Positions 6,498-36,155 of a stretch of 37,780 nucleotides of DNA are shown here, piece after piece. Source of the stretch: a virus (taxonomy: Duplodnaviria; Caudoviricetes); IMG/VR virus record IMGVR_UViG_3300027790_000053, positions 1 to 37,780 of that record. One strand, given 5' to 3'. The position numbers were made by a program, and so were the translations under genes. The notes under the pieces were generated by a model. That model was not told the origin of the DNA. It did not search any database and saw only the letters and a list, made by a program, of their open reading frames with translations. Each line of letters starts with the position of its first letter. Positions within the stretch are counted from its first letter, which is position 1.

Positions 6498-6498
6498 G

Positions 6499-7017: not shown

Positions 7018-7021
7018 GTCC

Positions 7022-7759: not shown

Positions 7760-7760
7760 C

Positions 7761-8372: not shown

Positions 8373-8376
8373 TAGG

Positions 8377-10420: not shown

Positions 10421-11213
10421 AGAAGCCTCGTTCAATTTCTAGCTCGTTTACTTTGCGTCTGTATGCGTTCCATATAGCGGCGTACCTTGTGTACTCATAG
10501 CCGGGAATACAAGGCAGCCCTTCGGTCCAATGGATTGCTCCAATGTCTTCGGATTCAATGCGTTCCTCTGAATGGTTTGGGATAAAGTTCCAGCGCTCGC
10601 TCAGGCTACCCAGCAAGGGATTGCCCTTTGCATCCTTGGGGAGCCACTGGAATGTGTGCAAGTCTCTCCCCGACATAGTATTGGCCTTTTCTTTGTCCAA
10701 GTCCAAGGGGCGCCCTAAGTCAAAGAGCATCAAAGAAGACCAGAGCTTCATTTGGTATTGCGCTTGATCCTGGTTATCCATTTTGACAGTACCCTCCGGG
10801 CTGTAGTTATGCTTAACGCAATATACTGGATACCCCGGGGCTTGTGTAGCCTCCCGTAGAATCTTATAGGGATCATCCAGAAAAACAAAATCCGAATCAA
10901 CAAATAGAGCGGCATCGTTAACAGAGAGCCCAAGATGATTGCAAAACGCAGGGACAAGGAACCGAGAGTGCGCAAACTGCGTAGAGAAAGGGCGCCCGTC
11001 AGACTTGTCCACAGAGCGGCCCGTATCTCCTTCCACTTCCCAGCCTCTATTAAAGAGACCAAGGCTTCTGAGGAGCCTATGGTCCAACTTGTAGATGGAT
11101 ATAGGTCTCGAAGCCTGTTCACGGATGGACTCGGCACATATCTTCCATGCTGTGTCTTGTCTTTCGTCATATCCAATTAGGACATGCAAGTTGGAATCGG
11201 GTCTCATGAGCAA
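10413..11213 (-). CDS. GT8/CDI-like glycosyltransferase
   Basis: VLIGYDERQ, STQFAHSRFLVP, FVDSD, VKHNY...KMD.Q.Q..Y..K.WSSLMLF, LHTFQWL, WN, HWTEGLP. Confidence 0.9.
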   Translation of the reverse strand: MLMRPDSNLHVLIGYDERQDTAWKICAESIREQASRPISIYKLDHRLLRSLGLFNRGWEVEGDTGRSVDKSDGRPFSTQFAHSRFLVPAFCNHLGLSVNDAALFVDSDFVFLDDPYKILREATQAPGYPVYCVKHNYSPEGTVKMDNQDQAQYQMKLWSSLMLFDLGRPLDLDKEKANTMSGRDLHTFQWLPKDAKGNPLLGSLSERWNFIPNHSEERIESEDIGAIHWTEGLPCIPGYEYTRYAAIWNAYRRKVNELEIERGFYD

Positions 11214-11234
11214 ACCCCTTGTATTTCTTCGGCG

Positions 11235-11393
11235 TCATCCTTCATCTCTTAGTTGGTCCATTATCATCCTCCGACAGGGCTTCATTGCGGTATGCGTAGT
11301 CCCCAGCATCATAAATAAGCTGTAGTGCATTGTTTCTGGCGCGTGTAACTTGCACAGCAGGTCAACCATCTTGTTCCATTCTGCGACAATCAT
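11235..11393 (-). CDS. Small hypothetical protein (52 aa, not in ORF track)
   Basis: MIVAEWNKMVDLLCKLH...DQLRDEG*; ATGA overlap with the DUF3310 stop; GGAG RBS. Confidence 0.55.
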   Translation of the reverse strand: MIVAEWNKMVDLLCKLHAPETMHYSLFMMLGTTHTAMKPCRRMIMDQLRDEG

Positions 11394-11671
11394 ATGTCTT
11401 CTCCATAGGTAAGCTTGGCTTCCAAGCGAATACAGTGCAGTGCTTTGCGCAAATCTTCTACGCCATTCTTGAACCTGTGCCGCGTAGCATACTTGATAAC
11501 TGCATGTTCTGCGGGGGTTAGCTTGTTTAAGTGTGCGTAGATAATGGGGTCGATAGCCAAGCTTTTGTAGTGGCTTCCTCCAACTTGTTCATCAAAGACA
11601 CCCCCTGTGTACTTATCAGGACACCAAGCTTCGTGCCCTTCCTCTTGTAAGCACTTCTCGCATTTAGGCAT
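11390..11671 (-). CDS. DUF3310 (SaV-like) protein with N-terminal Cys/His cluster
   Basis: QVGGSHYK...PI.Y......E..VIKY..RH..KNGVEDLRKA; start MPKCEKC at 11671. Confidence 0.85.
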   Translation of the reverse strand: MPKCEKCLQEEGHEAWCPDKYTGGVFDEQVGGSHYKSLAIDPIIYAHLNKLTPAEHAVIKYATRHRFKNGVEDLRKALHCIRLEAKLTYGEDI

Positions 11672-11891
11672 CTGAGTCCCCCTTGAACATTGCATCCAGA
11701 GAAAGCTTGGCCTTTGTCACTACGTCTAACAGAGATAGCAAGTGAGCCTCTACGTCTTCCAACTTTCCTATGTTTTCTTGCATCTCATCCTTGGTTGGCT
11801 CTGTATTCAAAAAAGCCATGTACTGGGTTAAGGCGGCTACTAACTCAGTGGCCTCGCTATACATTGAAGTTGCGCGCACTGAGGACTTCAT
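11664..11891 (-). CDS. Hypothetical protein
   Basis: 75 aa helical ORF tiling the gap between the radical SAM and DUF3310 genes. Confidence 0.6.
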   Translation of the reverse strand: MKSSVRATSMYSEATELVAALTQYMAFLNTEPTKDEMQENIGKLEDVEAHLLSLLDVVTKAKLSLDAMFKGDSDA

Positions 11892-12848
11892 CTAGTACGC
11901 TACGCAGTCCTCACAGACAGTTCCTGTGACATCTTTATCAAGGTGAGCCCTTCGCACTCTTTCAAACTCTTTGCCATGCCATACCTCTTTGAAGCTTTGA
12001 GTATTCAAGTCTCCTACCTGGAAGCGCCCGTCAGCATCGAAGCAACACAAAGAGAACTTACCATCGGCCCTTACATGCCCCTCAGTAAACGCAGACCAGC
12101 ACGGCAACGGAGACACCAGACCACCAATGCGGCCCATGTTCCCGGCAGTGGGTTTAAACCCCAGCTCTTCTTCTCTTTGGGTCGCAACGGCGCCCATCGA
12201 ATAAAGGGGCAGCCAATAGTGTTCATCAACGTAAGGTTCAATGTGTTCTTTCACCAAGGCTTCCATCTTCTTTTGTTGCTCTCCGTCATACATAATTGAA
12301 GAGGCATAGACTTTTGTCTTGTAGCCCTTGGCATCACGTATAGCCTTTGTGCTTTTCAAATACAACATGGCGTCATGGAAAAGCTTTCCCTTTACTTGGG
12401 TAATGTCTTTGAACTGCTCTTCGTCTGCATTGTTCATGGAAAACTTCAAAGAGTCCAGCCCCGCAGACATAAGACCTTCGATAGCCTTGGGCGTGGCAAG
12501 GGAGCCGTTGGTAGTAAGAAATACATAAGGACACTTAAGCTCCTGTTTAAGGTACTCTACTGCCTCTACTGCCAGTTCCGGCGCCATCAAGGTTTCCCCA
12601 AGGTAGAAGATGCCTATCTCCTGGACGCCTGCATCAATCATTTCCTTGGTTATTCTTTTGAATAAGGCAAGGTCCATATCGCCTACGGGCTGGTGGGTGC
12701 GGGATCTAATAGCGCAAAAGCCGCACCTGTAATTACATCTCCCCGTCAATTCTATCTTTACGCTACGTGGGATAGGAGGGTTCGGTACTAAGAAGTCCTC
12801 CGGTATATGGGTAATACTGTCGATTCTCTTCGTTATGCTTTCTGTCAT
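11892..12848 (-). CDS. Radical SAM protein with SPASM/twitch domain
   Basis: CNYRCGFC (CxxxCxxC), GE, TTNGSL, C-terminal PC...ADGKFSLCC..GDLN..VW..CEDC. Confidence 0.95.
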   Translation of the reverse strand: MTESITKRIDSITHIPEDFLVPNPPIPRSVKIELTGRCNYRCGFCAIRSRTHQPVGDMDLALFKRITKEMIDAGVQEIGIFYLGETLMAPELAVEAVEYLKQELKCPYVFLTTNGSLATPKAIEGLMSAGLDSLKFSMNNADEEQFKDITQVKGKLFHDAMLYLKSTKAIRDAKGYKTKVYASSIMYDGEQQKKMEALVKEHIEPYVDEHYWLPLYSMGAVATQREEELGFKPTAGNMGRIGGLVSPLPCWSAFTEGHVRADGKFSLCCFDADGRFQVGDLNTQSFKEVWHGKEFERVRRAHLDKDVTGTVCEDCVAY

Positions 12849-18209: not shown

Positions 18210-18707
18210 TTATTTGAGTGTATCCGCAACAGGAACTTGGGGAACACCATGCAAGAACGCTTGGTCTTTAGTAACGGAAATTATAGGAAGGAATAAACCA
18301 TCCATAGCAGAAACAGGAATAGCCCACTCTACCTTGTTGTCCAGTATTTCTTGGCGCCTAGGTAGATAAAGAACTGCATGGTGTTGACCTTGCATCTTGC
18401 CCACAACGATTGCCATGTCGTCTGCGTCTATGGTCGTAGAAAGAATGCCAAGCTTGGCCAAAGCATAGTCTTCGCAGTCACCCGACATATCGTCAAAGAG
18501 TTCCTCAGGAAGTTTCCAATGGTCTACGTCTTCGTGTTCATAGGCGATATTCCAGTTAATCCACTTATTAGTCCCATGCAAAAGACAAGATGTCATGAGA
18601 TTCTTTGGAGGTTCCCAGTCTAGCCATGCTTGCACAGCCTCAAGCCAGTTTCCCCTGTCATTTATAGGCCGCGCTATGGTGCCTAAGATATTCAGATCTT
18701 CAGTCAT
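18210..18707 (-). CDS. Transglutaminase-like cysteine protease (BTLCP / LapG-like, Peptidase_C93)
   Basis: N.WIN..I.Y..ED.DHW..P.E......GDCEDYALAK, HAVL, ILDN giving a Cys-His-Asp triad; AAGGAGG RBS. Confidence 0.9.
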   Translation of the reverse strand: MTEDLNILGTIARPINDRGNWLEAVQAWLDWEPPKNLMTSCLLHGTNKWINWNIAYEHEDVDHWKLPEELFDDMSGDCEDYALAKLGILSTTIDADDMAIVVGKMQGQHHAVLYLPRRQEILDNKVEWAIPVSAMDGLFLPIISVTKDQAFLHGVPQVPVADTLK

Positions 18708-19350: not shown

Positions 19351-19539
19351 TCACCTGGAATCCCACCATAGAAGAACCAAGGCAACACCGTGCCAGCCCA
19401 CCATCCAACCGCCTGTAATACCAGCCCAGACAGTAAAGAGGGTTGTTTCAGGGATTAGCGCAACACCTACGATAAGACCAAGGCCAAGAATGCTTGACAT
19501 CGCAACGTAAGCAATTTCCAAGGGGTCAGTACCTAGCAT
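19351..19539 (-). CDS. Small membrane protein
   Basis: 62 aa, two TM segments, GAGGAG RBS. Confidence 0.65.
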   Translation of the reverse strand: MLGTDPLEIAYVAMSSILGLGLIVGVALIPETTLFTVWAGITGGWMVGWHGVALVLLWWDSR

Positions 19540-19987
19540 GACTTGTTCTCCTCAGGTAATCTTCGAGAATACTACGTGAACTATTAGCTTTACCTGTTTG
19601 CATAAAGCGAGGGGCAATACGAAGCCTTTCCAAAGCCTCCCTTTCCGCTACAGGAATGTCTTTGCTGCTCTTTCTATCGCCGCCGTTCACAAAGACCATC
19701 CTTTGCTCAGGCCCATACATCTCTCTTACTTTCTCCAGGAAGTCCACAGCGTGTCCTTGCGAATCATCAAAGGCAAGCACTCTGCTAACCGTTCCGAGGG
19801 CTTCCAGGATTACCTTGCGTTCTTTCCAAGGTAAAAACCAAGTTTGCTCAGGGCGATCCTTGCGCTTCTCTTGTAGCCAAGCATCCGAGTTTAGACCTAC
19901 GACTACATTAGAGCCAATGCCGAGTAGTTCAATGTGGCCGGAGTGCAAGGGGTCCATGCCGCCAGTCACGAGGTAAAGAGGCGTCAT
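19526..19987 (-). CDS. Cytidylyltransferase-like (HIGH-superfamily) nucleotidyltransferase
   Basis: VTGGMDPLHSGH, VVGLNSDAWL, ER..IL.AL..V..V..FDD, FVNGGDR, K.NSS. Confidence 0.9.
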   Translation of the reverse strand: MTPLYLVTGGMDPLHSGHIELLGIGSNVVVGLNSDAWLQEKRKDRPEQTWFLPWKERKVILEALGTVSRVLAFDDSQGHAVDFLEKVREMYGPEQRMVFVNGGDRKSSKDIPVAEREALERLRIAPRFMQTGKANSSRSILEDYLRRTSHARY

Positions 19988-22513: not shown

Positions 22514-25132
22514 TTATTCCTCCTCAGATGGCGCGGTTACTTCGGTACCTGCCAAGGCACCAAGCCCCGCTGCCCCTGCGGTAAAGAGAGGCGCATTATA
22601 ATATTCAAAGTCACGCACAGGGCGAAGGGCCTGCCGGACGGCTTGTCTTCCCGCGTGTTCTCCTGCAGGTCTTGCCGCTTGCTGTGTAAGAAGGCGAGCG
22701 CCTGAGACCGTTCCAATGGCATTCCACAGAGCCCACCCTGTTCTTGAGATGACACCACCAGAGCCAGAACGGTTCCTAAGATTAGCGGGCGTAGTGTCGC
22801 CTACGATATCTCTAAGTGTATTCCTGTAGTTTCTGAAACGACTAAGTTCTGCGGGTGTAAAGAGTTCAGCAAGATACTCAGGGTTCCTGGACATCTCACT
22901 GTCAATTCTGCGCAAGATCGTGTGATAGCTTGCCCGCGCTTCATTAAGCCCTGCATCTGTAGGATTAAGGAGTGCTTGGCGTGCCGTAGGGTTGTCCCCA
23001 AAGAGAAGACGCGCAGCTACAGCTTCTCGGGTGACTTGAAACTGTTCAGGGAAGTTTGATTTAAGATGCCTTACCATTCCCAAAGAAAGGTCATTGCGGC
23101 CAACACGCCCGTTACCCATTATCCAGTTAGCCACTTGATTGGCAGAGCGCTCATCGCGGACGATTCTATCCATTGTTTGCCCTACCCGGGAAGGCATGGA
23201 ACCCGCCCGCCCTCTGGGCTCAAACAAGCGTCCCTGTTCTGCTCTAGCACCTCTTGCAGCGGCGTAGGTTTCAAAGAACTCAGGGGGCGAATCAAAGAGC
23301 TTGGCATCCACAGCATCGTCTAGCCAGGTATCAAGCCCGTCCAGAACACGCTGTGCTCCCATAGCATCCGTAGGTGTTCCGTTTCTACTGGCACTTTCAA
23401 TACGTTGTCTAAGAAGTCTGCGCACTCTGTCGAAGTCCCTTGAATACTCAAGGATGTCCCCGCCTGCCATGCGCTGTGCTAGGCCGTCTACATCGTTAAG
23501 GGCATTGATTGTCTGAGGGGTTAAGCCACTGTCAATGACTATGCCACTCTGATCCATAGATCCTGTGATACCTTCTCTCAGGCTCTCTAAAGAATCCCCT
23601 GTAAATTCAACGTCACCAAAGGCGCGGGTTTGGTCATAGAGTTCGCCCACAGTAGCGCGTTGCTGTTCAAAGGAAGAGGACAAATCATCTCTGAGCATAG
23701 TCCCCGCTTGTGCTTCGGGGTTATCCAGCGAATCAATATCAAGGGTATTGCCAAATTCATCTCTTTGCGCTCTTGCGTGTCGCGCAACATCCCGCGCTTG
23801 GCGAAGGTCTTGGGCGCGTACTTCAGCAGAGGCAGCGGGGCCATAAGAGCCTCCGCGTGCATCGTCCAGCGTACTCATCAAGGCCGGGTCTTGTGTCGTC
23901 TGGGCTCTGTTAAGGGTTACGCCCTGTTCTCTTGCTCTTGCTACACGCGCAGCCGCATCCGGAGTAAGGTTTGATTCTTCTCCGAGAGCACCGCGTACTC
24001 TGCGTCCCGCGTCACCCACGGTTCTCCCTGCCCTGTGAGCCGCAGAACCTTGTGGCCTTGTAGCACTCTGTGGCCCCATAGGCACAGCCGCAGGGTCAGG
24101 AACTGATCTCACGCCTCTCCCTAAGTGTCTCGCAGCGTTTCTCACGCCACTACCTACGAGAGGTGCCAAGGCTTCCCCTGCACCGCCAGCGCCCGCAGCT
24201 AAAAGCATGCGCCCGGGGTCTACGCCTTGCTCTGAGCCTTGGCTCATCGCTGTTACATCTTGGGCCAGACTTGTAGTGCCTGAGAGCGCTGCGTTTGCAA
24301 GGATACGTCTTAAAGGGGTACGAGCGGCGCCCGCAACCCTCGCCGCAGGTGCATACCACACACCCTCTGCAATAAAGGTAAAGAGATCCTGAGGGGAAAC
24401 ACCTGGGGAGTTCAAATAAGCAAAGCCATCTGTAGTCTCGGAATTTTCGAAGTTAGGATCATTGGGGTGCCTAGCTAAAATTCTTCCTTCACTGTCTTCT
24501 CTTACTTCAATTCCCGGGATACCCCGCCTGATAATGTCCATCTGAGCACGGGGGTCTGGGGTTATTGCCAAGGCGCCAACCACATCCCAAGAGTCCTCGA
24601 AACCCATGTCCACTGCCCCGAGTTCTCGCGCCCCTTCAAAGTCTGGGTCTCGCCGAGGGGCAAACATATCTCTCACGAAGTCCTGCGCCCCACGGGGGCG
24701 GTATTCCTCTGCTCTAGCGTTAAGCCTTGCCGCTTCTTCAGGTGTAATCACGCCCGCTCTGCGTGCCCTGCTAATATGAGTTGTTTGACCCATGTGCCCT
24801 TCATTAAAGACAGGAGGGTCGTTAGGATGTCTCTGGTCAGGAAAAGGTTCACCTGTCTCGACATGCCTGCGGATATTGTAGTAGTCCTCGCTAGGTGCGG
24901 GATAATCCTCAGCCCTTACAAGGTTCTCCCCTCTTTGGGCAAGAAGGGTATCAAAGGCACTTGGGGTATCTTCTTGGGGTCTGCCTTGATCTTGCTTTAG
25001 AGACCTGCGCGGTTTGTCGTAGCTTGCTCTTTGCACAGACGGCGGATTAAAGGGGCCACCATAAACAGGAGTGTTTCCCGGCTTTCTTGCTGACCGCGTA
25101 AACCAATCATGTGGAAAACCAAGATTCATCAA
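22514..25132 (-). CDS. DNA ejection (transfer) protein, P22 gp16-like
   Basis: 'YLNSPGVSPQDLFTFIAEGVWYAPAARV' matches the LNxPGxSPQDL segment I recall from P22 gp16; last of three ejection genes; Ala/Gly/Arg-rich helical protein. Confidence 0.8.
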   Translation of the reverse strand: MMNLGFPHDWFTRSARKPGNTPVYGGPFNPPSVQRASYDKPRRSLKQDQGRPQEDTPSAFDTLLAQRGENLVRAEDYPAPSEDYYNIRRHVETGEPFPDQRHPNDPPVFNEGHMGQTTHISRARRAGVITPEEAARLNARAEEYRPRGAQDFVRDMFAPRRDPDFEGARELGAVDMGFEDSWDVVGALAITPDPRAQMDIIRRGIPGIEVREDSEGRILARHPNDPNFENSETTDGFAYLNSPGVSPQDLFTFIAEGVWYAPAARVAGAARTPLRRILANAALSGTTSLAQDVTAMSQGSEQGVDPGRMLLAAGAGGAGEALAPLVGSGVRNAARHLGRGVRSVPDPAAVPMGPQSATRPQGSAAHRAGRTVGDAGRRVRGALGEESNLTPDAAARVARAREQGVTLNRAQTTQDPALMSTLDDARGGSYGPAASAEVRAQDLRQARDVARHARAQRDEFGNTLDIDSLDNPEAQAGTMLRDDLSSSFEQQRATVGELYDQTRAFGDVEFTGDSLESLREGITGSMDQSGIVIDSGLTPQTINALNDVDGLAQRMAGGDILEYSRDFDRVRRLLRQRIESASRNGTPTDAMGAQRVLDGLDTWLDDAVDAKLFDSPPEFFETYAAARGARAEQGRLFEPRGRAGSMPSRVGQTMDRIVRDERSANQVANWIMGNGRVGRNDLSLGMVRHLKSNFPEQFQVTREAVAARLLFGDNPTARQALLNPTDAGLNEARASYHTILRRIDSEMSRNPEYLAELFTPAELSRFRNYRNTLRDIVGDTTPANLRNRSGSGGVISRTGWALWNAIGTVSGARLLTQQAARPAGEHAGRQAVRQALRPVRDFEYYNAPLFTAGAAGLGALAGTEVTAPSEEE

Positions 25133-28100
25133 AGACCAAGTTCCTCTTTAAGGCGATTAACCGCCTCTTGTCTTGCAGCACCCTCAGACATATTGGGGTT
25201 TGCTTGGCGCAACTCTTGTGCGTATTGCCCTGCCCTCCGGTTAAATTCACTTTCTGCTTCGTCCAAGGTTATAAAGTCCAAGGGGGTATTAGTGGCGCCC
25301 AGTGCAAGGCGCATAGATGCTCGGATTCTTACCTGCATAATGTTGCGTCTGAAACCGTCCACCTTGGCTTGGAAGGTCTCTGGGTCATCCCCGTCAAAGG
25401 GGTTAAAAGAGTCCCCAATGTCAGGCAAGAAGCCCATCATACGTGCCTCTTCCGCGCCTGAAACTGTAGCCCCTGCGAATTGTTTGATGTAGTTATTCAT
25501 AATCACCAAGGCCGCTTGGCGTGTTCTCGCAAAGTCGTATAACCGGGCGTCTTCTTCAGGAGTTGTATTGTCATCACCAAAGCGGCGTCTCAGACTTATC
25601 CAAGCCATCTGCATGCGTGGCCAAACCTCAAATTGCTCCCCGTCCCCATACAAGCGTTGTAGCTCATCAACCTGATCTAGGGTTGCTGTGGTGGCGTTAA
25701 AGGCGTCAATGTATTCCCGCTCTTGGGGAGCCCCGCCTTGGATACTCCCGCTCCCCGTGCCTACCGCAGACCCCGGAACACCTTCCTGTGGTCTTCCTTG
25801 TTCTTGTTTCAAAGGCATACGTGGTTTGTTCTGAGGCATACCCTGAGGCGGTCTTTGTTGCCCTTGGGGCGGTCTTTGCTGCATACCCTGAGGTGGTCTC
25901 TGAGGCATACCCTGAGGTAGTCTTTGCGGCCCTTGGGGAGGGCTCTGAGGCATACCCTGAGGCGGTCTCTGAGGCATCCCTTGGGGAACCTTCTGCGCCA
26001 TGCCCTGAGGTGGCCTGATCTGGGGTGAAGGCATAGGCCCTGCGGGCGCGCCTTGCGACATTTGATTCACAAAGTCCAAAGCAGGGGAAGCCCGTGCAAC
26101 CACGGGATCAACCCCTTGTCCACCCTGCCCTGCTCCGAGGGCCAAAGGAGACGCGGATTGTTTCAGTGCTGCTTGCTGTGGCTGTGTGTAAGAGCTCATA
26201 GCATCAGCGGCTAGTGTGGAAGCCATCTGCATGATAGGACCTTGAATGTCATCCCACCACTTAGGCTCTTCCTCTTCCTTTTCTCTTCCAAGGATCTCAG
26301 ACGCAGCTTCAGCTAGAATTTTACTCAGGTCCTTGCTTTTTACAGCAGGGCCACCGTTAGCATAGCCTTGGACACCGCCGCCGTCTTTGAAACTCGAAGG
26401 GCCTCCAAAGGCAGCTTGATTACCTTGACCGCCTTGACCGCCTTGTGCGCCAAAGTCCATCAGAGGATTACTGACACCTTGCCAGCCAAAGTTATTGCCT
26501 CCGCCGCCCATAGCTGATCCTTGGGCGCCTGCTGGCCCTGTAGGGGTCTGCTGAGGCTGGCCTTGGTTCCCAAAGGCTGGCTGTTGGTTTTGATTCCACT
26601 GAAAACTAGTGCCGCCAAAGTTCATCAAGGGGTTACTTCCGCCTTGGCCACCAAAGGGGGTCTGCATATTTACAGGTTGCTGGGGAAGCCTAGAAGGGCC
26701 TCCAAAGGTATTCTGAGGCTGGCCTTGGTTCCCAAAGGCTGGCTGTTGAGGCTGTCCTGCCTGAGGCTGACCTGCACCGCCGCCAGGCCCAAATGGGTTG
26801 GCTACGCCTATGTTACCAAAGGCAGTGTTTTGCCCCATGTTGTCAAGAGGATTCAAAGGTTGTCCTTGGCCTTGACCTTGGAATTGACCTTGAAATGGCC
26901 CGTATCCTATGGCCTTTCCCGGTTGAACGTATCCTTGAGGACTTCCAGAGCGATTTATACGATACGTGGAAGAAAAAGGAACCTGGTACCCAAGGGGGTT
27001 GGCAGTACCGCCATCAGCGTACCCTTGAACTTGGCCACCATTGGCATATCCCCCAGTAAGACTACGAGAGTCAGGCGTGCCTATTCTCCCCAAGCGCTCC
27101 ATGTGGCGCTGAGCTGCCTCAGGTGGAACAAAGATGACTTCACCGTTACTTAACTGAACGGGAACCTTCTCGCCATTGCGCGCTTCATCAAAGCCCTCTA
27201 GCCCCCCTAGATCCAAGGCTCTTCCGTAAAGAGACTGTTCGTCCCAGAGAGGTTCCCTAGTGTCGCGGAAGGGGTCTTGGACAGACCTGCGTACTTGACT
27301 GCCCTCAGCATAGCCCTGTACCCCGCCACCATCGGCAAAGCGCAGCGCGGGACCCCTTGGATCTTGCGTACCACCAAGAGGGATAAAGGGATTGTTTCGA
27401 CTTCCAATAGGCCCTGAATTTTTATGGAAAGAGGCAAGCATTTGCTCTTCTGCCTTAGATTCATCTATTGCTTTTTTTCGGTTAGCCGCTCCAATGCGAC
27501 CAGACCCCGCACCGTAGATAGGAACTCTAGCACCTCCTGTGTAAGCCTCGTGCGCTGGGGTACCTGAAGCCCAATTAGGTGCATTGCTAAAATTGTCAGA
27601 GGCCCCCGATAGCCTGTTTAAGGCTTGGAAGGCTGCGTTAGGAACCATGTTCATTGCTTGGCGATCAGATATGCCATAACCGCCCATGCGCGTAATGTTG
27701 GTCAGAGGGTTCATGGTTGTATTCTGGGAAGTAAACCCGTTGACACCGCCGCCCTCTGCATAGCGTCTGGGGTTTTCTTGCGGACCAAAACCAAAGCGCT
27801 CTCCAAGAGAGGTCCTTGCTTGTTCCCGCTCAACATTGCCGCCTAGGGAAGACAACGGATTACCTTGAGTTCTTCCTAAGCCTCTCCTTGCTTGACGGGC
27901 AGCACGCCTGCCTTCGTTTCCGAAGTTACCGCCTCGGTTTCCAAACTGGCCCCCGGGAGCAGGCGCGGGTGGAGGAGGAGCTGCCTGAGGCGGCATAGCA
28001 TTGTACCCCTCTGGGCCATAGACTTGAGGATAGTGGTCCTCAGCATAAGGACTCATTCCATAGAGTTGATTGATATAAGGATTATAGGCAATGGTTCCTA

Positions 28101-28563
28101 AAGGCGTTCCATGTGCAATAGAGCCTTCTGGTATCCCAAAGGGTGCTTCGCTTTTCTCGCCAAACTGAGCCATGAAAGCGTCTAGACCTTCTTGTGAGCC
28201 AAAGAGTTCTTGAATCCAAGGGTCACTAGCCGCGTCTGCGGGAGTTGCTCCGGCATTCGTTGGCGCGGGGGCAGCAGTAGAATTGCCTCCCATCTGGTTC
28301 ATCAAAGCCATTGTTTCGAGGGCATTGCGATATCCAGAGCCTTGCCTATTGTACTTCCTGGAATCAAAGGGGTTTCTACTTGCCCATGAGTCCAAAGCTG
28401 CTTGGTCTTGGGCATTAAAGATTATCTGGTTTGTATCCGGGTCTACGTTGTAGTAAATCTGGTTATTGCGAGGTTTACGGCTTGCATATGTCAAGGAAGA
28501 CCTGTTGCCTTGTGTGGCATTGCCCCCGTCTTGATACCCCTTGTATGTGCGCCGATTATTCAT
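25129..28563 (-). CDS. Internal virion/ejection protein (gp20 position) with [YF]x[DEN]GG repeats and Q/G/P low-complexity regions
   Basis: 1144 aa; AAGGA RBS; C-terminal helical domain with 'GATVSGAEEARM..FLP..GD' as seen in ejection proteins; synteny. Confidence 0.75.
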   Translation of the reverse strand: MNNRRTYKGYQDGGNATQGNRSSLTYASRKPRNNQIYYNVDPDTNQIIFNAQDQAALDSWASRNPFDSRKYNRQGSGYRNALETMALMNQMGGNSTAAPAPTNAGATPADAASDPWIQELFGSQEGLDAFMAQFGEKSEAPFGIPEGSIAHGTPLGTIAYNPYINQLYGMSPYAEDHYPQVYGPEGYNAMPPQAAPPPPAPAPGGQFGNRGGNFGNEGRRAARQARRGLGRTQGNPLSSLGGNVEREQARTSLGERFGFGPQENPRRYAEGGGVNGFTSQNTTMNPLTNITRMGGYGISDRQAMNMVPNAAFQALNRLSGASDNFSNAPNWASGTPAHEAYTGGARVPIYGAGSGRIGAANRKKAIDESKAEEQMLASFHKNSGPIGSRNNPFIPLGGTQDPRGPALRFADGGGVQGYAEGSQVRRSVQDPFRDTREPLWDEQSLYGRALDLGGLEGFDEARNGEKVPVQLSNGEVIFVPPEAAQRHMERLGRIGTPDSRSLTGGYANGGQVQGYADGGTANPLGYQVPFSSTYRINRSGSPQGYVQPGKAIGYGPFQGQFQGQGQGQPLNPLDNMGQNTAFGNIGVANPFGPGGGAGQPQAGQPQQPAFGNQGQPQNTFGGPSRLPQQPVNMQTPFGGQGGSNPLMNFGGTSFQWNQNQQPAFGNQGQPQQTPTGPAGAQGSAMGGGGNNFGWQGVSNPLMDFGAQGGQGGQGNQAAFGGPSSFKDGGGVQGYANGGPAVKSKDLSKILAEAASEILGREKEEEEPKWWDDIQGPIMQMASTLAADAMSSYTQPQQAALKQSASPLALGAGQGGQGVDPVVARASPALDFVNQMSQGAPAGPMPSPQIRPPQGMAQKVPQGMPQRPPQGMPQSPPQGPQRLPQGMPQRPPQGMQQRPPQGQQRPPQGMPQNKPRMPLKQEQGRPQEGVPGSAVGTGSGSIQGGAPQEREYIDAFNATTATLDQVDELQRLYGDGEQFEVWPRMQMAWISLRRRFGDDNTTPEEDARLYDFARTRQAALVIMNNYIKQFAGATVSGAEEARMMGFLPDIGDSFNPFDGDDPETFQAKVDGFRRNIMQVRIRASMRLALGATNTPLDFITLDEAESEFNRRAGQYAQELRQANPNMSEGAARQEAVNRLKEELGL
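25830..26012 (-). repeat. Coding tandem repeat, 8-aa unit approx. PQGMPQRP
   Basis: Degenerate units of about 24 bp (ctgaggcataccctgagg...) repeated several times. Confidence 0.9.
26551..26748. repeat. 36-bp exact direct repeat (QQPAFGNQGQPQ)
   Basis: ctgaggctggccttggttcccaaaggctggctgttg at 26551-26586 and 26713-26748. Confidence 0.9.
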
Positions 28564-28572
28564 AGGTGTTCC

Positions 28573-31251
28573 TTAGTATCTGCCTTGCGATTTTAAAGGA
28601 GGAAGAGGCCGTGTGGACATAAGATTATCTAGATCCTCTTGGCTGTCAGGGTCTGTGAAAGTTTCATAGACACGCGACCTGATTCTGTCCACCGCATCAT
28701 AGTCAATTTGAGGTCCCCCAGGGGCTGCTCCCATATGATCATTCGAAACCAGGCGAATAAACTCAGAATCCTCTGGGTAATCCTGCAGAGTGTTGTTTTG
28801 CAAATCCCATTCCAAGGCACGGTAAACAGCGCTCTCAGTTAAACCATAAGGACCTACAAGTCTGCTCACACTTTCTTGGATCACAGGGTCACTTCGTAGA
28901 AACCCGTAGTTTTCACTGGTATGACCTTGGCGATCAATGGGCCCTACTGCCTTAATCTTGTCTTCGTGCCTACCCTGTTCTGAAAGCATATCCATGCTTC
29001 TGCCTTGATACCTTGAATCTCTCTCAAAGGGATGCTCTTGTGAAAGCATGTCCATGCTTCTGCCTTGATACCTTGAGTCTCTTTCAAAAGGATGCTCTTG
29101 TGAAAGCATCTCCATGAGACCGCTGCGGCCCCAAGGCGCATAGAGGTTCTCTGTGGCCTGAGGGCGTACTTCGCCACCGTCTGCATATTCTCTTCTTGTA
29201 TCATTACCAAAATGTTCTTCCCAAGAAGGCTGTGGCCCCCAAGTATTATCCAAAACATTACCTGTAACATTTTCCCATGCTTCATAGATCATTAAAGGTC
29301 TTGTTTCTCTAAGCTGTTCATGTAATCTCTCAATCTCAGCTTGGGTTTCAGGCCCTCTGCCTCCAGATACCCACTTATAATAAAGGTCTTCCAGTTGTCT
29401 TTGTCGTTCTTGATCCCTTAGGGTGCCATCAATGCTGCTGCTTGACGCATCTGTGTCAAACCCGTGTGCAGGACTTCCGTAGGAGCCTACTTCTCCACCG
29501 TCTTGGTAATTCCTTGGCATAACTCTACCTCCTTCTCGGTAATCTTCGGGTCTTGAGCCCTGTCTCATATTCAAGCTAACACCGGGCACACCAAATTCTT
29601 CGTCTTCAAAGAAGGCGCCATAAACGACACTATCAGGATGATAGGGGACAAAATCTTCATTGTATAAGCCTGTACGTGTGTCTTCCCCTCTGACACGGTT
29701 AAGCATCTCTCCCAGCTCTCTAACGGCCTCTTGCGCAGTAGCGCCCTCAGAAATTCTTTGGCGAACATAGGCGTCTTGTGCTTCAAAAAGTTCTTCTTCG
29801 TGGGAGCCGACATCTTGGTAAAATCCTTCAATCTTTCCTTGAACACCTCCGCCGTCTTGATAATTCCTTGGCATAACTCTACCTCCTTCTCGGTAATTCT
29901 TCGAGGGTTCTCCTTGTCTTAGTCTTTCTTGGTATTCTCTTACATGCGGGAACCGCTCTACAAAAGGTTCCCAGAAATTTGGCCTGTCCTCTGTCCTCGA
30001 AGGACGAAGAAGCCAATTAGCGTTATCTTCTTCTCCCCACGCGATAGGGACACCTTTGTGGAAGTAGATGCCAGACTCTTCGTCATAAGTCTCACCTCGC
30101 CGCAACAACTCTCCCATTTCTACAATGTTCATTTCTTCAAGGTCAGACCTTGTGGCGTGACTGCCCGTATAATAACCGTCTTCATCAAAGGAAGCATCGC
30201 CACCCAAAATTCCAGAGATATGCCCTATTTGATCCCGAATAGGAAGCTCCCCTAGGGTTCTTCGGGTATCCTCTCTCTCTTGGTGGTTCTTAGTAACCTG
30301 CGCCAAGGGGTTGCTGACCCCGCCACCGTCTTGGAAAAAGCCGATTACCGACTTTCCTATGCCCACAGCCTGTCCCAGTTGATCAAGGAACGATGGGTTC
30401 TCTGTGGCTGTACCTGTAGACGAGCTTGAGCCCGTTCCTGTTGTGTGCTGTGGCGAGAGTTGTCCCCAAGTTCCGCCTATGCCCTGTGCCATGTCACCAT
30501 AGAACTGAGCTGTATTAAATGGGTATTGTACCCCGCGTCCAAACTCGTCCACCCCGAAGTCCAGGCCGCCCTGCGCTTGTTGCTCGAAGGCTTGTCCTAT
30601 GTTTGTCAAGTTGGACGCATTAGCAACCTGTTGGTTTCTTAGCATATCACTAAGGGCCATCCCGGTTCCCACAGCCCCGCCTTGATATCCCAGGTCTTGT
30701 TGGCGAAGCCCTTGAGCTCTGTCCCAGTTATCCTGGAGACTGCCGTAATTCAATTCCTGCTTTTGGCGCGCATAATCCCTTGCCATCTGTGCATCTGCGA
30801 TTCCAAAGCGCCCACCACCGAAAGAGCCTGCGAGTGCCTTTTGACCCGCAAGCCTTTGCCGGTCTTGATCATGCTGCTCGGCAAGGCGCTCCATCGCAAT
30901 GTCGGAGACATTACCTTCATAGGAGTTCAAGTATGGCTGGAGGTCTTCTTGTGTGGGCGCCTGCCCTGTTTGGGCGAGGTAGCTAAGGGCGCTTTCTTGT
31001 GTGGCTTGGTTTAGAGGGTTCTCTGCATCAGCGATCTCGCGCATGCGCTTGTAGCCTTCAAGGCTATCAGGAGCAAAGGGGGCTTGGGGAACACCGGGGT
31101 AAGGGGTAAAGGGCTGTCCTGCCGCATTCCCTGCCATGCCAAGGGCTTTAGACCACGCGGCTTTGACCTCAGGCGGAATGTCATAGTTTGACCATTGATC
31201 AAACGCCTCTTGAGAGTTACTTGTTTCTGTAGTGCTTGAACCTTTTCCCAT
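28573..31251 (-). CDS. Internal virion/ejection protein (gp7 position) with appended GG-delimited modules
   Basis: 892 aa; N-terminus MGKGSSTTET, 'PY.....D.A...L', 'GSFGGGRFG', Gln-rich helices and Gly-rich hydrophobic segment typical of first ejection/pilot proteins; directly follows the GNAT gene. Confidence 0.78.
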   Translation of the reverse strand: MGKGSSTTETSNSQEAFDQWSNYDIPPEVKAAWSKALGMAGNAAGQPFTPYPGVPQAPFAPDSLEGYKRMREIADAENPLNQATQESALSYLAQTGQAPTQEDLQPYLNSYEGNVSDIAMERLAEQHDQDRQRLAGQKALAGSFGGGRFGIADAQMARDYARQKQELNYGSLQDNWDRAQGLRQQDLGYQGGAVGTGMALSDMLRNQQVANASNLTNIGQAFEQQAQGGLDFGVDEFGRGVQYPFNTAQFYGDMAQGIGGTWGQLSPQHTTGTGSSSSTGTATENPSFLDQLGQAVGIGKSVIGFFQDGGGVSNPLAQVTKNHQEREDTRRTLGELPIRDQIGHISGILGGDASFDEDGYYTGSHATRSDLEEMNIVEMGELLRRGETYDEESGIYFHKGVPIAWGEEDNANWLLRPSRTEDRPNFWEPFVERFPHVREYQERLRQGEPSKNYREGGRVMPRNYQDGGGVQGKIEGFYQDVGSHEEELFEAQDAYVRQRISEGATAQEAVRELGEMLNRVRGEDTRTGLYNEDFVPYHPDSVVYGAFFEDEEFGVPGVSLNMRQGSRPEDYREGGRVMPRNYQDGGEVGSYGSPAHGFDTDASSSSIDGTLRDQERQRQLEDLYYKWVSGGRGPETQAEIERLHEQLRETRPLMIYEAWENVTGNVLDNTWGPQPSWEEHFGNDTRREYADGGEVRPQATENLYAPWGRSGLMEMLSQEHPFERDSRYQGRSMDMLSQEHPFERDSRYQGRSMDMLSEQGRHEDKIKAVGPIDRQGHTSENYGFLRSDPVIQESVSRLVGPYGLTESAVYRALEWDLQNNTLQDYPEDSEFIRLVSNDHMGAAPGGPQIDYDAVDRIRSRVYETFTDPDSQEDLDNLMSTRPLPPLKSQGRY
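28981..29115. repeat. 60-bp coding tandem repeat (2.25 copies)
   Basis: Unit encodes MDMLSQEHPFERDSRYQGRS; the two full copies differ at 4 positions. Confidence 0.95.
29498..29897. repeat. 46-bp direct repeat pair flanking a module
   Basis: 29498-29543 and 29852-29897, 45/46 identical, encoding YREGGRVMPRNYQDG. Confidence 0.95.
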
Positions 31252-31253
31252 GG

Positions 31254-31757
31254 TTATTTAGCTAAGACCAGGACACTCCCCAGCTTCTCGAAGCCCTTCC
31301 TTTTAAAGTACCGCTCCAGCAAGTCTATCTGATCTGTGTATTGAAAGGTGGACCCAACAAAGGGAAAGCCTGAGGCCCTTGCAAATTCAATACCAATGTT
31401 CAGAAGACGGTTAGCTAGATTGTAGCTGCGGTAGTATGGATTGACATAGAAAACAAGATTAACCAGCATTCTATGTTTACTCCACCAGACCCCCTCTAAC
31501 CGGAGGGCCAGTATGCCTGTAATTGTATCATGATTAGCCTTATCCGTGTAAGTAGATAGCCAAACGATGCCTTCCTCGGAAGGACCTAGCAGATTCCAGA
31601 AGGTCGTCTTGACCGTTTCAGGGTCTCTAGGGAGAAATTCATGTAGATTATTCTGTTCATCAAGAGCATCCCCTACGAGAAACCCCACGATATCTTCAAT
31701 GTCTAGAACAGTAGCGCGGCGTAGCTTATGGCGCTCCGGGAGGGCCTCCTCGGGCAT
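31254..31757 (-). CDS. GNAT-fold acetyltransferase-like protein (P22 gp14 position)
   Basis: LRRATVLD, FYVNPYYRS..LA.RLL, RYFKRKGFEKLG. Confidence 0.85.
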   Translation of the reverse strand: MPEEALPERHKLRRATVLDIEDIVGFLVGDALDEQNNLHEFLPRDPETVKTTFWNLLGPSEEGIVWLSTYTDKANHDTITGILALRLEGVWWSKHRMLVNLVFYVNPYYRSYNLANRLLNIGIEFARASGFPFVGSTFQYTDQIDLLERYFKRKGFEKLGSVLVLAK

Positions 31758-32013
31758 TCAATGGTCCTTTCAGTGCTTGATTGTCCACGGGTCTTTCCGC
31801 ACTGCCTTTGTAATTCCTCCGAATGTTGTCTACCAAGGCGTCAAAAGCCTTAACTCCTGCGTCTGTATTTCCATCCCCGACCATTGACACGATGTCAGCG
31901 GGAATAACGTATTCACCCTCGCTAAGCATAGCGGGGACATCATCTGCCCTGCCGCCACCAGGTATTTCACCCATTGCCCCGGAGAGCATGTCCATTAAAG
32001 CGTTTTCAGCCAT
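31726..32013 (-). CDS. Small conserved protein with 'DDVPAMLSEGEYVIPADIV' motif
   Basis: 95 aa; the motif resembles the 'SDSIPAxLSxGEFV' segment of many tape-measure/internal virion proteins. Confidence 0.8.
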   Translation of the reverse strand: MAENALMDMLSGAMGEIPGGGRADDVPAMLSEGEYVIPADIVSMVGDGNTDAGVKAFDALVDNIRRNYKGSAERPVDNQALKGPLNARGGPPGAP

Positions 32014-32533: not shown

Positions 32534-32799
32534 TACTCTGCCTCTTCATCCTTGTCAGCCAAGATATCTTCTACGTCTTCAATAAAGGGCTTAACAAAAG
32601 CGCAATCGTCTGCAGTGACATCAATTCCAATGCGGCACTTAATTAGAACAAGATCCCTTTGGATTTCTGCATCACGTACCGCCGCGTCTTTCCAAGCAAC
32701 AAACCCTGCACCCGCAACGGAGAACCCGGCTACTACTATGCTTACGATCCATACCGGGAGCATTTTCTTGAAGTGATCTTCAATATATTTAAGCATCAT
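32533..32799 (-). CDS. Small single-TM protein
   Basis: 88 aa; translationally coupled on both sides. Confidence 0.65.
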   Translation of the reverse strand: MMLKYIEDHFKKMLPVWIVSIVVAGFSVAGAGFVAWKDAAVRDAEIQRDLVLIKCRIGIDVTADDCAFVKPFIEDVEDILADKDEEAE

Positions 32800-34607
32800 C
32801 GTTCTCCATCGGGCTGCGCCCTGACACGGATATCTCCAAGGCGGAAATTAGCGTTAGCCACAGTGCATGTTACAGTAAGATTCATTTGCCGCCCTCTAAG
32901 GCGCACACTTTTCTTGCCTGTCATAGTGTTCACGTTGAAAGGCCCCTTCTTGGAAAACTCAGCAGCTTGAGGGTACTTCTTGGATTCAAGGAAGAATTTA
33001 ACGCTGTCTGTCTGGTCAACATCAGGGACAAACTGGTCTACAAACATCATCTGGTCGCCGTCTTCTATCTGGACCGCGCCTGACTGCAAGAAGGCGCCCA
33101 GAATGCTTGTTCTATCGTCGTACCCACTTTCATGCGTGTAAAGGGACGAGGACACAGAGGCCGCTGTGGTAGCAAGAGGGTTAGCGTAGAGCTTGGTGCC
33201 TGTCCAGGTTGTGCGTGTGAGGTTCCCATCATACCAGGTATTTTCAGAGTAGTTATGGATGATATAACGAGAGTTCTCTTTGTTACTCCCGGCAGGATAA
33301 AACCACCATATCTCTGAGAACTCTGTGTTCACTCCACAGAATGTCTTTTCTTTTTGATTCAGGTTCAAACGGTAGGGATGACTTTGAGAGAACACGGCTT
33401 CGTCCAATGTGCTGTTAAGCTGTCTTACCGTACCATCATAAACGTAGAAAGACCCCTCAGACATCCAGTAAAGAATCCCGTTAAGGTCCACCCCTGCATT
33501 CATCCCTGCAATCCCGCAGTTCGACCCCAATCGGCTAAACCCGTAGTAATCAGGAGGCCCCACATAGTTCATGGAATACGCACCTTCATCTGTGAAGATA
33601 ACGTGCTCTTTCTTTGAATCCAAAGCGCCTACTATTTCAGAGCCAATAGGAAGCCTGTAATCCCCCGCACCATTTGTAGCCGCCGCTGTCCACTCGGTAT
33701 AATCCTCTGTATCAGACCAGCGGACAAGCATGGGATCAAAGTTTCCCCCGGCAACACAAGTGCCGCAAAGGACAACCTGGCGCGAAGGGTTACTGAGGAA
33801 CATCACGTTATTCTTTGTCGGTGCATTGTTCACAATGGAGGCTCGCCCGCCCGCAGATGTCTCTCTGTAATACAAAGAACCATTCTTCTGGCACGCAATA
33901 AGATCTTCACCCCAGTTATCCAAGGTCCATTGTCGCAAGGCTCTGGCTACACCCCCGCTGCCTGCCTCGCCCCAATTACCATCACCCCAGGGATCAGAGC
34001 CCCACCCAAATAAAGCCCCATTGGATTTAAGACCCGCTGTAATAAGGAATTGAAAAGAAGCGGAAACATTGCCTTCCGCCGTGTATGTGCTTGTGGCAAC
34101 TTCGGATGAGGGCAAGGAGACATCAAAGTGATTCGTACCTGCCGAGACAATGCGGTAGTGCCCTGCGGAAACTGTTTGTCCCCCATCGGTAAGCTCGACA
34201 GAGGAGTTTATGTAGAGAAGGTCATTTGCTTGTGCGCCGTGCGCGACCAGAGAGACATTAACTACGTTAGACCCGGCTGTTCCCGAGAAAGCAGAGGCGT
34301 GGGCAACAGATGCCCGAAGAGGCGTGATGTCTTCCCATGTACCGCCCTTATCAACCCAAAGGCTGTTATGCGTTCCCAAGGCTACATATTTGGAGCCGTC
34401 TAGCGCCGCCCAAGGATGGATAGCCCTGCCTACACCGTGGTACCAGGTCGCTGTATCGCGCTCTTCCCAGCCACCTATCTTCTCGGCATACCCGGAAGAG
34501 AACCTGACTTTATCCGCAGAGGTCCAAGACCCCTCAGCTTGATACTGAGTGACATTGCGGTTAATCCCCGGCTGTATATTAAGTTTTTTGAGAACCCCTT
34601 CGCTCAT
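32796..34607 (-). CDS. Tail hub / packaged-DNA stabilization protein (P22 gp10-like)
   Basis: PGINR..T.Y..EG.W...DKVRF..G..EKIGGW, W.LDNWGEDL, VRWSD.ED..W....N.AG..RL, EIWWFYP, RLRGRQ, R..PDGER; beta-propeller-like. Confidence 0.85.
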   Translation of the reverse strand: MSEGVLKKLNIQPGINRNVTQYQAEGSWTSADKVRFSSGYAEKIGGWEERDTATWYHGVGRAIHPWAALDGSKYVALGTHNSLWVDKGGTWEDITPLRASVAHASAFSGTAGSNVVNVSLVAHGAQANDLLYINSSVELTDGGQTVSAGHYRIVSAGTNHFDVSLPSSEVATSTYTAEGNVSASFQFLITAGLKSNGALFGWGSDPWGDGNWGEAGSGGVARALRQWTLDNWGEDLIACQKNGSLYYRETSAGGRASIVNNAPTKNNVMFLSNPSRQVVLCGTCVAGGNFDPMLVRWSDTEDYTEWTAAATNGAGDYRLPIGSEIVGALDSKKEHVIFTDEGAYSMNYVGPPDYYGFSRLGSNCGIAGMNAGVDLNGILYWMSEGSFYVYDGTVRQLNSTLDEAVFSQSHPYRLNLNQKEKTFCGVNTEFSEIWWFYPAGSNKENSRYIIHNYSENTWYDGNLTRTTWTGTKLYANPLATTAASVSSSLYTHESGYDDRTSILGAFLQSGAVQIEDGDQMMFVDQFVPDVDQTDSVKFFLESKKYPQAAEFSKKGPFNVNTMTGKKSVRLRGRQMNLTVTCTVANANFRLGDIRVRAQPDGER

Positions 34608-34616
34608 GGGGCCCCC

Positions 34617-35486
34617 TTACTGCGTTTCGCCTTGGAAGAAGTACCATGCGTGACTGTTGGAACCCTCCTGCTTCACTACCATTAGTGCAGCGCCTGATCC
34701 ATAGTTATTCAATCCCGTATGTCCTGATGTGTTTACCAGGGAGGTGCTGGTAGGTGCGGAAATCGCAACGGTAACACCAAGGGCAATAAGAGTTGTGTTC
34801 CAGCCCACAGGAAGGGCCTTGTTAAGGTTCAAGTTCATGGACGTAGCGTTTTGCAACACCCAGACCTTGCCTGTATCAGCAGAGGTGAAGGTAAAGGCGC
34901 CCGTGGTTGTTTCCACTGAGACCGTGTAGTTTGTAATCACGTTGCCTGCGAAGTTATTATTTGCGTCAAGACGGGCAACAGAACTAGCTATTGTTTTCGA
35001 GACAGTGCCGAGCTCTGTGCGGATGCTTGTCAGGTCATCTCGCAGCGCCGCTGAGACTTGCGAGGTTACGTTCATTTGCCGGGCTACTTCAAAGACATTG
35101 GTGCCATCTGTGTGTACCAGACCCATGAAGTCCGAAGGGATTTTAAGGGCTGTTCCTGCGTCTGCTTCTACGCGCACGCGCACGGAGGCGCTATTAGAGA
35201 TGTTATTCCTGATCATGTAGTTCTTGCCTACATTCGGAACATACACTGCGATATTAGAGGTAGGAGCGCCCGTAAAGACCAGCACAGCGTTTCTCGACTC
35301 GTCAACTACCCCGTTAGCCTGTGATAAGGTAATACCCCCTGCCGAAGTAAGATCTACTGAAACGAGACCTGCTATAGAGTCTTCAAGAAGGGAAAAGACG
35401 GTATTGGCCTTGGTTCCCCAAGTATCCTGGTTTTCACCTGTTGCCTGAAGTTCTAGTCTAAGTTGTCCTGAATATGTGCTCGCCAT
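34617..35486 (-). CDS. Tail fiber/baseplate-like protein
   Basis: MASTYS..LRLELQATGEN..TWG.K.N N-terminus common to podovirus tail proteins; Ser/Thr-rich. Confidence 0.75.
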   Translation of the reverse strand: MASTYSGQLRLELQATGENQDTWGTKANTVFSLLEDSIAGLVSVDLTSAGGITLSQANGVVDESRNAVLVFTGAPTSNIAVYVPNVGKNYMIRNNISNSASVRVRVEADAGTALKIPSDFMGLVHTDGTNVFEVARQMNVTSQVSAALRDDLTSIRTELGTVSKTIASSVARLDANNNFAGNVITNYTVSVETTTGAFTFTSADTGKVWVLQNATSMNLNLNKALPVGWNTTLIALGVTVAISAPTSTSLVNTSGHTGLNNYGSGAALMVVKQEGSNSHAWYFFQGETQ

Positions 35487-36155
35487 TTAGTTTTGTCCTG
35501 CAAGTGTATTGTTGACCTGGTGCGGGTTAGAGAGAGGTTCCCCTGAATCTCTCCGCGCTCTTCGGCCTTCGTTATTAGCCCCTTGGACGGCTTCCATGTA
35601 TTTAGCATCCCATAACTGTACTTGGCTCCACTGCTTGGAAAACTTGGACATCTCAGCCATAGAGCCGTAGAAGAGAGCGTTGGGGTAGGAGGCTGTCAGG
35701 GTATTCACTGAACTGCCCGCTGTAAGCTTTGTAGGCTGCTTCTCGTAAGTCATAACAACCTGAGAGTTGGCTTGTGGGGTAGGTGCGATAAGGAACGTGC
35801 TAACATCCGCGTCTGCATAGTAAACAGGCTCAGCGGTAGATGTCTCGTAAGGCCAATAAACATCACAATACCCGCGCGTTCTCTTCCTTAGAAGCCTGCG
35901 ATCTCCTGAGGATGTCTTGAAAAGTATCTCATGCCCCAAGCGATACCCTGAAGGCTTGCCTAAAAACCGAGAGCCCTGTGTTAGAGAAACAGTGGTTTGT
36001 ACGAGGAAAAGCTGTGAATCCAGTTCTCGCGCCAAGCGGTCCTCTGTCAGACCAATGGCTGTGGGGATATACGCCCGGAATTCCGCAGAATCGTCCTCAG
36101 TGACGTTTACAACTGCAGATACCAGAGTAGTATAATTAGAGATAACTTCGGCCAT
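35487..36155 (-). CDS. Head-tail adaptor (gp4/gp11-like)
   Basis: NYTTL...V..., IPT.I.L.E.RL.REL, P.YYA......F.IAPTP, YPNALFYG, Y..A...NNE..R.RRD. Confidence 0.8.
   Translation of the reverse strand: MAEVISNYTTLVSAVVNVTEDDSAEFRAYIPTAIGLTEDRLARELDSQLFLVQTTVSLTQGSRFLGKPSGYRLGHEILFKTSSGDRRLLRKRTRGYCDVYWPYETSTAEPVYYADADVSTFLIAPTPQANSQVVMTYEKQPTKLTAGSSVNTLTASYPNALFYGSMAEMSKFSKQWSQVQLWDAKYMEAVQGANNEGRRARRDSGEPLSNPHQVNNTLAGQN

Follow-up and report, generated by a model that had tools for sequence, protein, structure and literature searches.

Why should a virus encode two very long, probable virion proteins that are divided by a recurring Gly-Gly motif, together with a small separate protein of a kind that in tape measure proteins is found directly behind such a motif? 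The question is raised by IMG/VR virus record IMGVR_UViG_3300027790_000053 (Duplodnaviria; Caudoviricetes), a record of 37.8 kb that is estimated to be ~73% complete; the whole stretch of 37,780 nucleotides was analyzed and is called here the window. The two long proteins contain 892 amino acids (aa; 28573..31251) and 1144 aa (25129..28563), and the small protein, denoted p95, contains 95 aa (31726..32013). These genes and their tags are all found on the minus strand. An earlier note on this DNA had proposed that the motif is split here into a repeated peptide tag and a separate reader. We find the cassette system to be real, with tag and reader split from each other. The further proposal, in which p95 would read the tags in trans as sites of cutting, appears to us to be evenly poised between right and wrong.

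Gly-Gly Tags in the Two Cassette Proteins

Thirteen tags of the form [YF]x[DEN]GG, and one degenerate copy (YAEGS), were found in the two proteins. The 892-aa protein is composed of a conserved N-terminal block of 305 aa followed by four swappable acidic blocks, and its six tags are FQDGG at residue 306 (30322..30336), the doublet YREGG/YQDGG at residues 453 and 464 (29848..29895), the same doublet at residues 571 and 582 (29494..29541), and YADGG at residue 689 (29173..29187). The 1144-aa protein is composed of a basic leader of 9 aa and five blocks. Its seven tags and the degenerate copy are YQDGG directly behind the leader at residue 10 (28522..28536), YAEGG at residue 268 (27748..27762), and the doublets FADGG/YAEGS at residues 409 and 418 (27298..27339), YANGG/YADGG at residues 506 and 515 (27007..27048), and FKDGG/YANGG at residues 725 and 734 (26350..26391). 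The members of the five doublets are spaced by 9 or 11 aa. These counts, the doublets, and the lack of any tag in the neighboring 872-aa protein are as the earlier note had given them, and the counts are far above those expected by chance. In 5000 shuffles of each protein the mean number of tags was 0.18 for the 892-aa protein and 0.26 for the 1144-aa protein, with maxima of 3 and 4, and the observed values of 6 and 7 were never reached. The tags do separate blocks, as had been claimed, and the block lengths extend from 88 to 411 aa rather than being confined to 80-260 aa.

The tag codons differ synonymously, except within one recent duplication of 51 nucleotides, a DNA repeat (96% identical) that joins the two YREGG/YQDGG doublets of the 892-aa protein. 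The tag is thus kept at the protein level. Short basic leaders of 5-9 aa ahead of an N-terminal tag were observed in the window (28522-28563) and at other loci (L088:10211, L007:9975, L032:11043, and L046:8412); they are reminiscent of removable capsid-targeting leaders. Within the cassette proteins, tandem repeats of 24 and 60 nucleotides, at window positions 25830-26016 and 28975-29116, encode stretches that are Q/P-rich and stretches with a 20-aa repeat.

p95 Is a Free Form of a Tape Measure Module

The open reading frame for p95 has 23 small homologues. The protein begins with a helix, followed by G-G-G-R-A-D24-D-V-P-A-M-L-S31-E-G-E34-Y-V-I-P and two further helices; we refer to this module without its tag as the body. 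The conserved core (residues 18-55; 31849..31962) contains the candidate Asp, Ser, and Glu residues, the conservation of which is partly built in by the member search. In the orthologue from relative L002, residues 18-42 are unchanged, and the codon changes were found to be 23 synonymous versus 15 nonsynonymous. p95 matches the profile of the tape measure module with E = 3e-14 and has an S-type body (D-x-P-A-x-L-S-x-G-E); comparison of the tape measure set with the podovirus set by hhalign gave 99%. In tape measures the module consists of xAxGG followed by D-x-I-P-A-x-L-S-N-G-E. The body is present in p95, and its own tag, which would lie ~15 aa upstream of the Asp, is absent. The split asserted in the earlier note is therefore real, since p95 is of the S-type and yet has a helix in the place of the tag.

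The p95 profile retrieved 15,824 clusters at 50% identity, mostly within longer proteins. Among the 194 complete body-bearing open reading frames in the loci examined, 171 are embedded and 23 are of at most 170 aa. The embedded bodies are often located at the end of the first cargo protein, closely preceded by a tag. A scan of genome contigs gave one locus. The xAxGG-plus-body module of the lambda, JBD30, and Douge type is uncatalogued and has no Pfam entry, and no description of the tag or the module was found in the literature searched, which covers few subscription papers.

A degenerate body, E-K-V-P-V-Q-L-S-N-G-E-V-I-F, is embedded in the 1144-aa protein (27094..27174), where the earlier note had also placed it. 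It matches the S-type profile with E = 4e-4, and its core comprises residues 466-480 (about 27124-27168). It resembles the second copy of proteins with tandem bodies (E = 1.2e-3 with the second-copy profile and no match to the first-copy profile), is kept in L002, and is absent from relative L088.

Three variants of the arrangement were observed elsewhere. In the free-body proteins P0012, P0014, P0016, and L099:603-914 a tag has been placed in the loop that separates D-D-V-P-A from L-S-E-G-E; it looks as though the body brings along a site of its own there. In a large subgroup (L108, L119, L223, and similar loci) the cis tag is replaced by Q-T-E-G-L-I, possibly an uncuttable stand-in for the tag. 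In Roseobacter phage CRP-1 the body forms the N-terminus of gp49 (L322:8956-9315), whose gene directly follows that of the portal in HMO-2011-type phages.

Coupling of Tag and Body

Loci were fetched by the body pattern alone, and x-A-x-G-G was sought within 30 aa upstream. The tag was found ahead of 107 of 123 S-type bodies, in 97 cases at exactly 15 aa, compared with 7 in control windows. For a second class of body (VGExGPE-type) the corresponding value was 111 of 121, nearly all at one spacing, compared with 4 in control windows. Tag and body thus form one unit in tape measures, as the earlier note had stated.

The free forms are also found together, as the earlier note had expected. The 23 free-body genes occur in a fixed gene order, and in all ten of those with at least 2 kb downstream, tagged proteins follow; one of the ten loci belongs to this phage itself, another contains just one strict tag, and the other 13 short genes were left out. 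A further sample was fetched by the nozzle-like gene and not by the motif, and 34 of 79 loci had 5 kb downstream. Here an excess of free tags was observed in 5 of the 7 body-bearing clusters and in 0 of the 4 body-less ones (Fisher p = 0.045). Against this, one body-bearing cluster has no strict free tag and another has one, and among the 13 records without a body 12 are fragments. The remaining record, a complete genome, contains neither the body nor free tags.

Exchange of Blocks at Tags

When relatives were fetched by p95, the gene order was found to be kept and the blocks to differ. The N-terminal block of the 892-aa protein is homologous across the relatives and in six records of cultured phages. 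A 600-aa protein from L002 shares this block and block 582-688 (100% over 77 aa) with the 892-aa protein, lacks blocks 306-452 and 464-570, and has other content between. In L088 the N-terminal block of the 892-aa protein and the first block of the 1144-aa protein are fused in one chain of 1589 aa, in which the 1144-type block begins at YQDGG, an internal joint there; a block resembling 306-452 forms the start of a separate gene of 294 aa. With the tags masked, 9 of 17 internal alignment ends were located within 20 aa of a tag, compared with 3.3 expected (p = 0.002), for seven pairs that are related and so not independent. In close relatives, blocks have been acquired, lost, relocated, and joined at the tags, which had been predicted. 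This exchange does not show why the tags are kept, because the tags are also short DNA repeats.

The same DNA repeats are the starting point for the explanation that the tags are flexible joints spread by short-repeat recombination, with p95 as a broken-off domain that has an unrelated role or none. The tags are in part DNA repeats, and many blocks are of low complexity. Against this stand the synonymous variation within the tags, the aromatic-x-x-G-G-x-V pattern that is fixed across distant phages, the unchanged core of p95, and the fixed order of the free-body genes. We consider this explanation very unlikely.

The blocks had been suggested to be anti-defense or host-takeover effectors, and this was not borne out. 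Ninety-three cluster representatives (from 498 blocks in 100 clusters) and three blocks of the window were scanned. Among these 96 blocks a Pfam family was found in one, a laminin-G fiber domain and not an effector, and PHROGs were found in four, none of them an effector; PADLOC was not scanned. Phage polyvalent or anti-defense effector cassettes thus have no support so far as a description of the blocks, given that none of the 96 matches an effector in Pfam or PHROGs. Several blocks are low-complexity stretches rich in Gln, Pro, and Gly. The idea of head-to-tail ligation, or of a terminal address label, was also rejected because the 394 tags are not enriched at protein ends (13 at N-ends versus 12.2 expected; 8 at C-ends versus 13.1 expected).

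Comparison with T5, Lambda, and JBD30

According to the accessible parts of two reports, T5 pb2 is cut after R1127 to give pb2* and pb2C (PMC10038345, PMC11937500), and the ruler of a T5 relative is also cut, as stated in the accessible part of PMC10713586. We find that the sequence at the T5 cut is R1127|AEGG, followed by a VGExGPE-type body (profile E = 1e-8), and that the mass computed for the C-terminal fragment, 9701.7 Da, compares with the reported 9702 Da. The T5 cut therefore falls between the first two residues of an x-A-x-G-G tag, with a small Glu-bearing module following. In contrast to the locus in the window, pb2 is a tail protein with one tag in cis, and its body is not demonstrably homologous to p95. 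We treat T5 as an analogy that shares the tag and a G-E-like string, not as a shown homologue. The "metallopeptidase motif" cited for pb2C is not general, since most VGExGPE-type bodies have Arg or Lys where this motif has His.

The module in lambda gpH, by contrast, is a homologue of the p95 body, as judged by profile matching. Residues 711-798 match the profile that matches p95 with E = 1e-6 (E = 0.0025 in a search of the whole PDB), the body is of the S-type, and the order is tag-body-tag. It differs from p95 in being in cis and in having His at the position of the Ser. A 2025 paper states, in its accessible part, that gpH loses ~14 kDa on maturation to gpH* and gpHC, that this occurs only after tail assembly, and that the site and the catalyst are unknown (PMC12617516). 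A cut at F733|ATGG is calculated to give fragments of 79.8 and 12.5 kDa, and these predicted sizes fit. The "hook" of the JBD30 tape measure (residues 1022-1066) is an S-type module as well (E = 8.5e-15), and the Douge tape measure also contains the module. The accessible text on JBD30 describes the hook as predicted to form two helices and a short hairpin, notes no peptidase motif, and guesses a cut at R1066 (PMC11445458), which is not at the tag.

Comparison with crAss001 and Possible Docking without Cutting

The cargo protein C1 of crAss001, gp45, has seven tags and the same layout of tags and blocks, as do the 22 distinct relatives that were examined. In one relative (L599) exactly 95 aa between two tags are missing, for which an assembly slip at a repeat is possible. 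Two fragments of gp45 are resolved (PDB 7QOG), 425-552, which is bound to the portal in 12 copies, and 214-245, in the tail (accessible part of PMC10172136). The portal-bound fragment has the Ala of N424|AFGG as its first residue and stops short of the following tag, and the tail fragment lies inside another single block. gp45 thus resembles the cassette proteins as a head and tail cargo of tag-bounded blocks, with a portal-bound domain that begins at a tag and contains an L-x-x-G-E-V string. It differs in that the domain is embedded and is ~128 aa long, homology to p95 is not significant, and the authors mention no motif and no cutting in the part of their paper that was available. crAss001 is, like T5, used here as an analogy sharing the tag and a G-E-like string. 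An Atlas score of 0.84 for the link to the crAss domain is a lead only.

The main rival to cutting is docking, in which the tag would be a strand that completes the body, and p95 would be a portal or scaffold adaptor that gathers tagged cargo into the prohead with the chains left whole. The portal-bound, tag-led fold of gp45, the chain of which has been read as intact, speaks for it, as do the body encoded in CRP-1 right behind the portal gene, the tags that follow short basic leaders or end a protein, and the doublets, which could add avidity. However, T5 is cut exactly at such a tag, the tags sit at internal joints and are not enriched at protein ends, and tape measures need no docking in the head and yet carry tag and body. 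We regard docking without cutting as rather unlikely.

Candidate Catalyst

If the tags are cut, p95 might itself be the peptidase, a possibility that we raise tentatively and from patterns of conservation. Asp24, Ser31, and Glu34 show no or almost no variation in the alignments. Tandem bodies were found at the C-terminus of 130 of the 143 best profile hits (P0027-P0169); all 111 of the second copies that could be read retain the Glu, and first copies have D, S, A, or T in its place, a pattern that fits a catalytic or key binding Glu, as in pairs of enzyme and pseudoenzyme. The tandem bodies suggest that the module works as a dimer; in this phage, p95 might pair with the embedded copy.

Alternatively, the tags would be cut by another protease, such as a host enzyme, a prohead protease, or a different phage peptidase, with the body only presenting the site or anchoring a fragment. 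No protease fold was found for the body, the same tag precedes different bodies, and lambda gpH is processed late. The title of a 1973 paper reportedly names the host as taking part in cleaving a T5 tail protein. The transglutaminase-like cysteine peptidase of family C93 (PF06035, above the cutoff; 18210-18707, minus strand), which contains a D-C-E-D-Y string and lies in the replication region, is the sole other peptidase seen in the window. It was rejected as the general cutter, as it was found in 1 of 30 related records, that of the closest relative. The retention of Glu in one of two tandem copies and the presence of the same tag in phages of unrelated hosts (E. coli, Bacteroides, and cyanobacteria) also argue against a separate protease, and we find this explanation improbable. 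An intein-like shift would be unlikely as well, because the residue after the cut is no nucleophile and the T5 masses show plain hydrolysis.

Proposed Mechanism and Points against It

In the mechanism that we propose, the 892- and 1144-aa proteins would be cassette polyproteins that a phage with a short tail probably carries in its head. Their tags would be cut after the first residue, by analogy with the T5 cut, the mass fit for lambda, and the fragment boundary in crAss001. p95 would recognize the tags in trans, as suggested by the vacant place of the tag in p95 and the co-occurrence of free bodies and free tags, and catalysis may involve the conserved Glu together with Asp or Ser. The reaction may take place at the portal, on the analogy of crAss001 C1 and from the position of the body in CRP-1. 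One or two genes would thereby yield about ten separately ejectable pieces, the content of which could be swapped by recombination at the tags. It is possible, and more doubtful than the reading of the tags as cut sites, that the body of ~50 residues is an undescribed and very widespread phage peptidase that cuts x|A-x-G-G, maturing tape measures in cis and serving in short-tailed and crAss-like phages as a portal-seated cutter that releases cassette pieces.

A number of observations weigh against this mechanism. The Ala that follows the first residue of the T5 tag is present in 7 of the 14 tags here. Because the tags double as short DNA repeats, recombination alone could set the block borders there. 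Among carriers of the p95-type body, cutting is known for lambda alone, at a site that is unmapped, and in lambda the Ser is replaced by His, with the Glu kept. The S-type and T5-type bodies were not linked by profile comparison, in which only the tag aligns (p = 0.01-0.02). The authors on crAss001 interpret gp45 as a single chain that extends through head and tail (accessible part of PMC10172136); the four gp45 peptides quoted there span no tag, as four could do by chance. The crAss domain and the body align weakly in hhalign (p = 0.026-0.033 over 15-17 columns), and crAss_CARG1 (PF25725) was matched neither by p95 (E <= 10) nor by 53 relatives (E <= 1). The invariance of Asp, Ser, and Glu follows in part from the search patterns, which contained these residues, and with ~50 residues the body would make a small peptidase. 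In two AlphaFold models of modules with tag and body, helices alone were placed (predicted template modeling scores of 0.49 and 0.38), with the N-terminal half not resolved, and a Foldseek search of the PDB with body models matched no solved fold. A structural search of BFVD returned uncharacterized homologues. No Pfam, NCBIfam, or PDB fold match to known peptidase families (prohead S21/S49/S78, JAB, NlpC, C93, and intein/Hint) was obtained for p95 or the module. When p95 was modeled, with a 77-row alignment, in complex with the segment 674-706 from the 892-aa protein, the score was 0.00, and the model is not used as evidence.

Gene Context

The minus-strand virion block is ordered as a SU10-type adaptor, a fiber-like protein of 289 aa, a 603-aa virion protein that we infer to be the tail nozzle, two small genes, p95, an acetyltransferase-like gene, and the 892-, 1144-, and 872-aa genes. 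The first three are at 32796..36155 (phrog_3287, phrog_12796, and PF24175). The acetyltransferase-like gene (167 aa; 31254..31757; phrog_1249, E = 1e-8) lies between p95 and the tagged proteins, with identical gene order in L002, L088, L165, L169, L172, and L189. The tag-free 872-aa protein (22514..25132, minus strand) has a weak match to phrog_29864, a transglycosylase, at residues 198-334. The earlier note had called the large proteins ejection proteins. The gene order agrees, with three large genes after the adaptor and nozzle plus an acetyltransferase-like gene, as in podoviruses, and these are likely ejection proteins of a short-tailed phage, packed in the head; presumably they correspond to gp7, gp20, and gp16 of P22. 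The label has no counterpart in family searches, in that no Pfam or NCBIfam family was found for the three proteins and no PHROG for the 892- and 1144-aa proteins. A block of one relative matches phrog_4287 (DNA ejection protein), which the proteins of the window do not match, and one record with weak similarity is labeled as an internal virion protein.

The replication genes are T7-like (DNA polymerase A and primase-helicase). A ribonucleotide reductase with a B12-type insertion domain (12864-15851, minus strand) is split by an intein with a LAGLIDADG endonuclease. Genes for a MptE-like protein, two methyltransferases (TylF-like and CmcI-like), and a radical SAM/SPASM protein are clustered at 5571-12848 (minus strand), and possibly constitute, with a cytidylyltransferase-like gene at 19526-19987, a pathway for glycan or DNA modification.

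Implications

Internal head proteins of other phages are processed by a head protease, as with T4 gp21 and its capsid targeting sequence and with SPN3US gp245, and there also a short motif marks cargo and processing points in the head. In T4-type processing the enzyme is the standard prohead protease, and the sites end in Glu. Here, the candidate reader is a 95-aa module derived from tape measures, and the site is a Gly-Gly tag. The system would thus be a variant of head-protease processing, because it works like it with different parts.

What is added here is the free body, the lambda module, and the reading of crAss001. The module family comprises ~15,800 clusters without a Pfam entry. The cutting of lambda gpH and T5 pb2 has been open since the 1970s, and at this locus a candidate catalyst is encoded as a separate protein of 95 aa, next to 13 naturally occurring candidate substrate sites; for lambda the exact bond is named, with F733|A734 as the predicted one. 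If the mechanism is true, the body would be the missing catalyst of lambda gpH and, via a diverged form, of T5 pb2, and a new class of peptidase. It would likewise offer a rival to the published model of crAss001 ejection, in which gp45 would be present as several fragments and not as one chain threaded through the portal. If the tags address or release cargo, they would provide a handle for loading proteins into phage heads.

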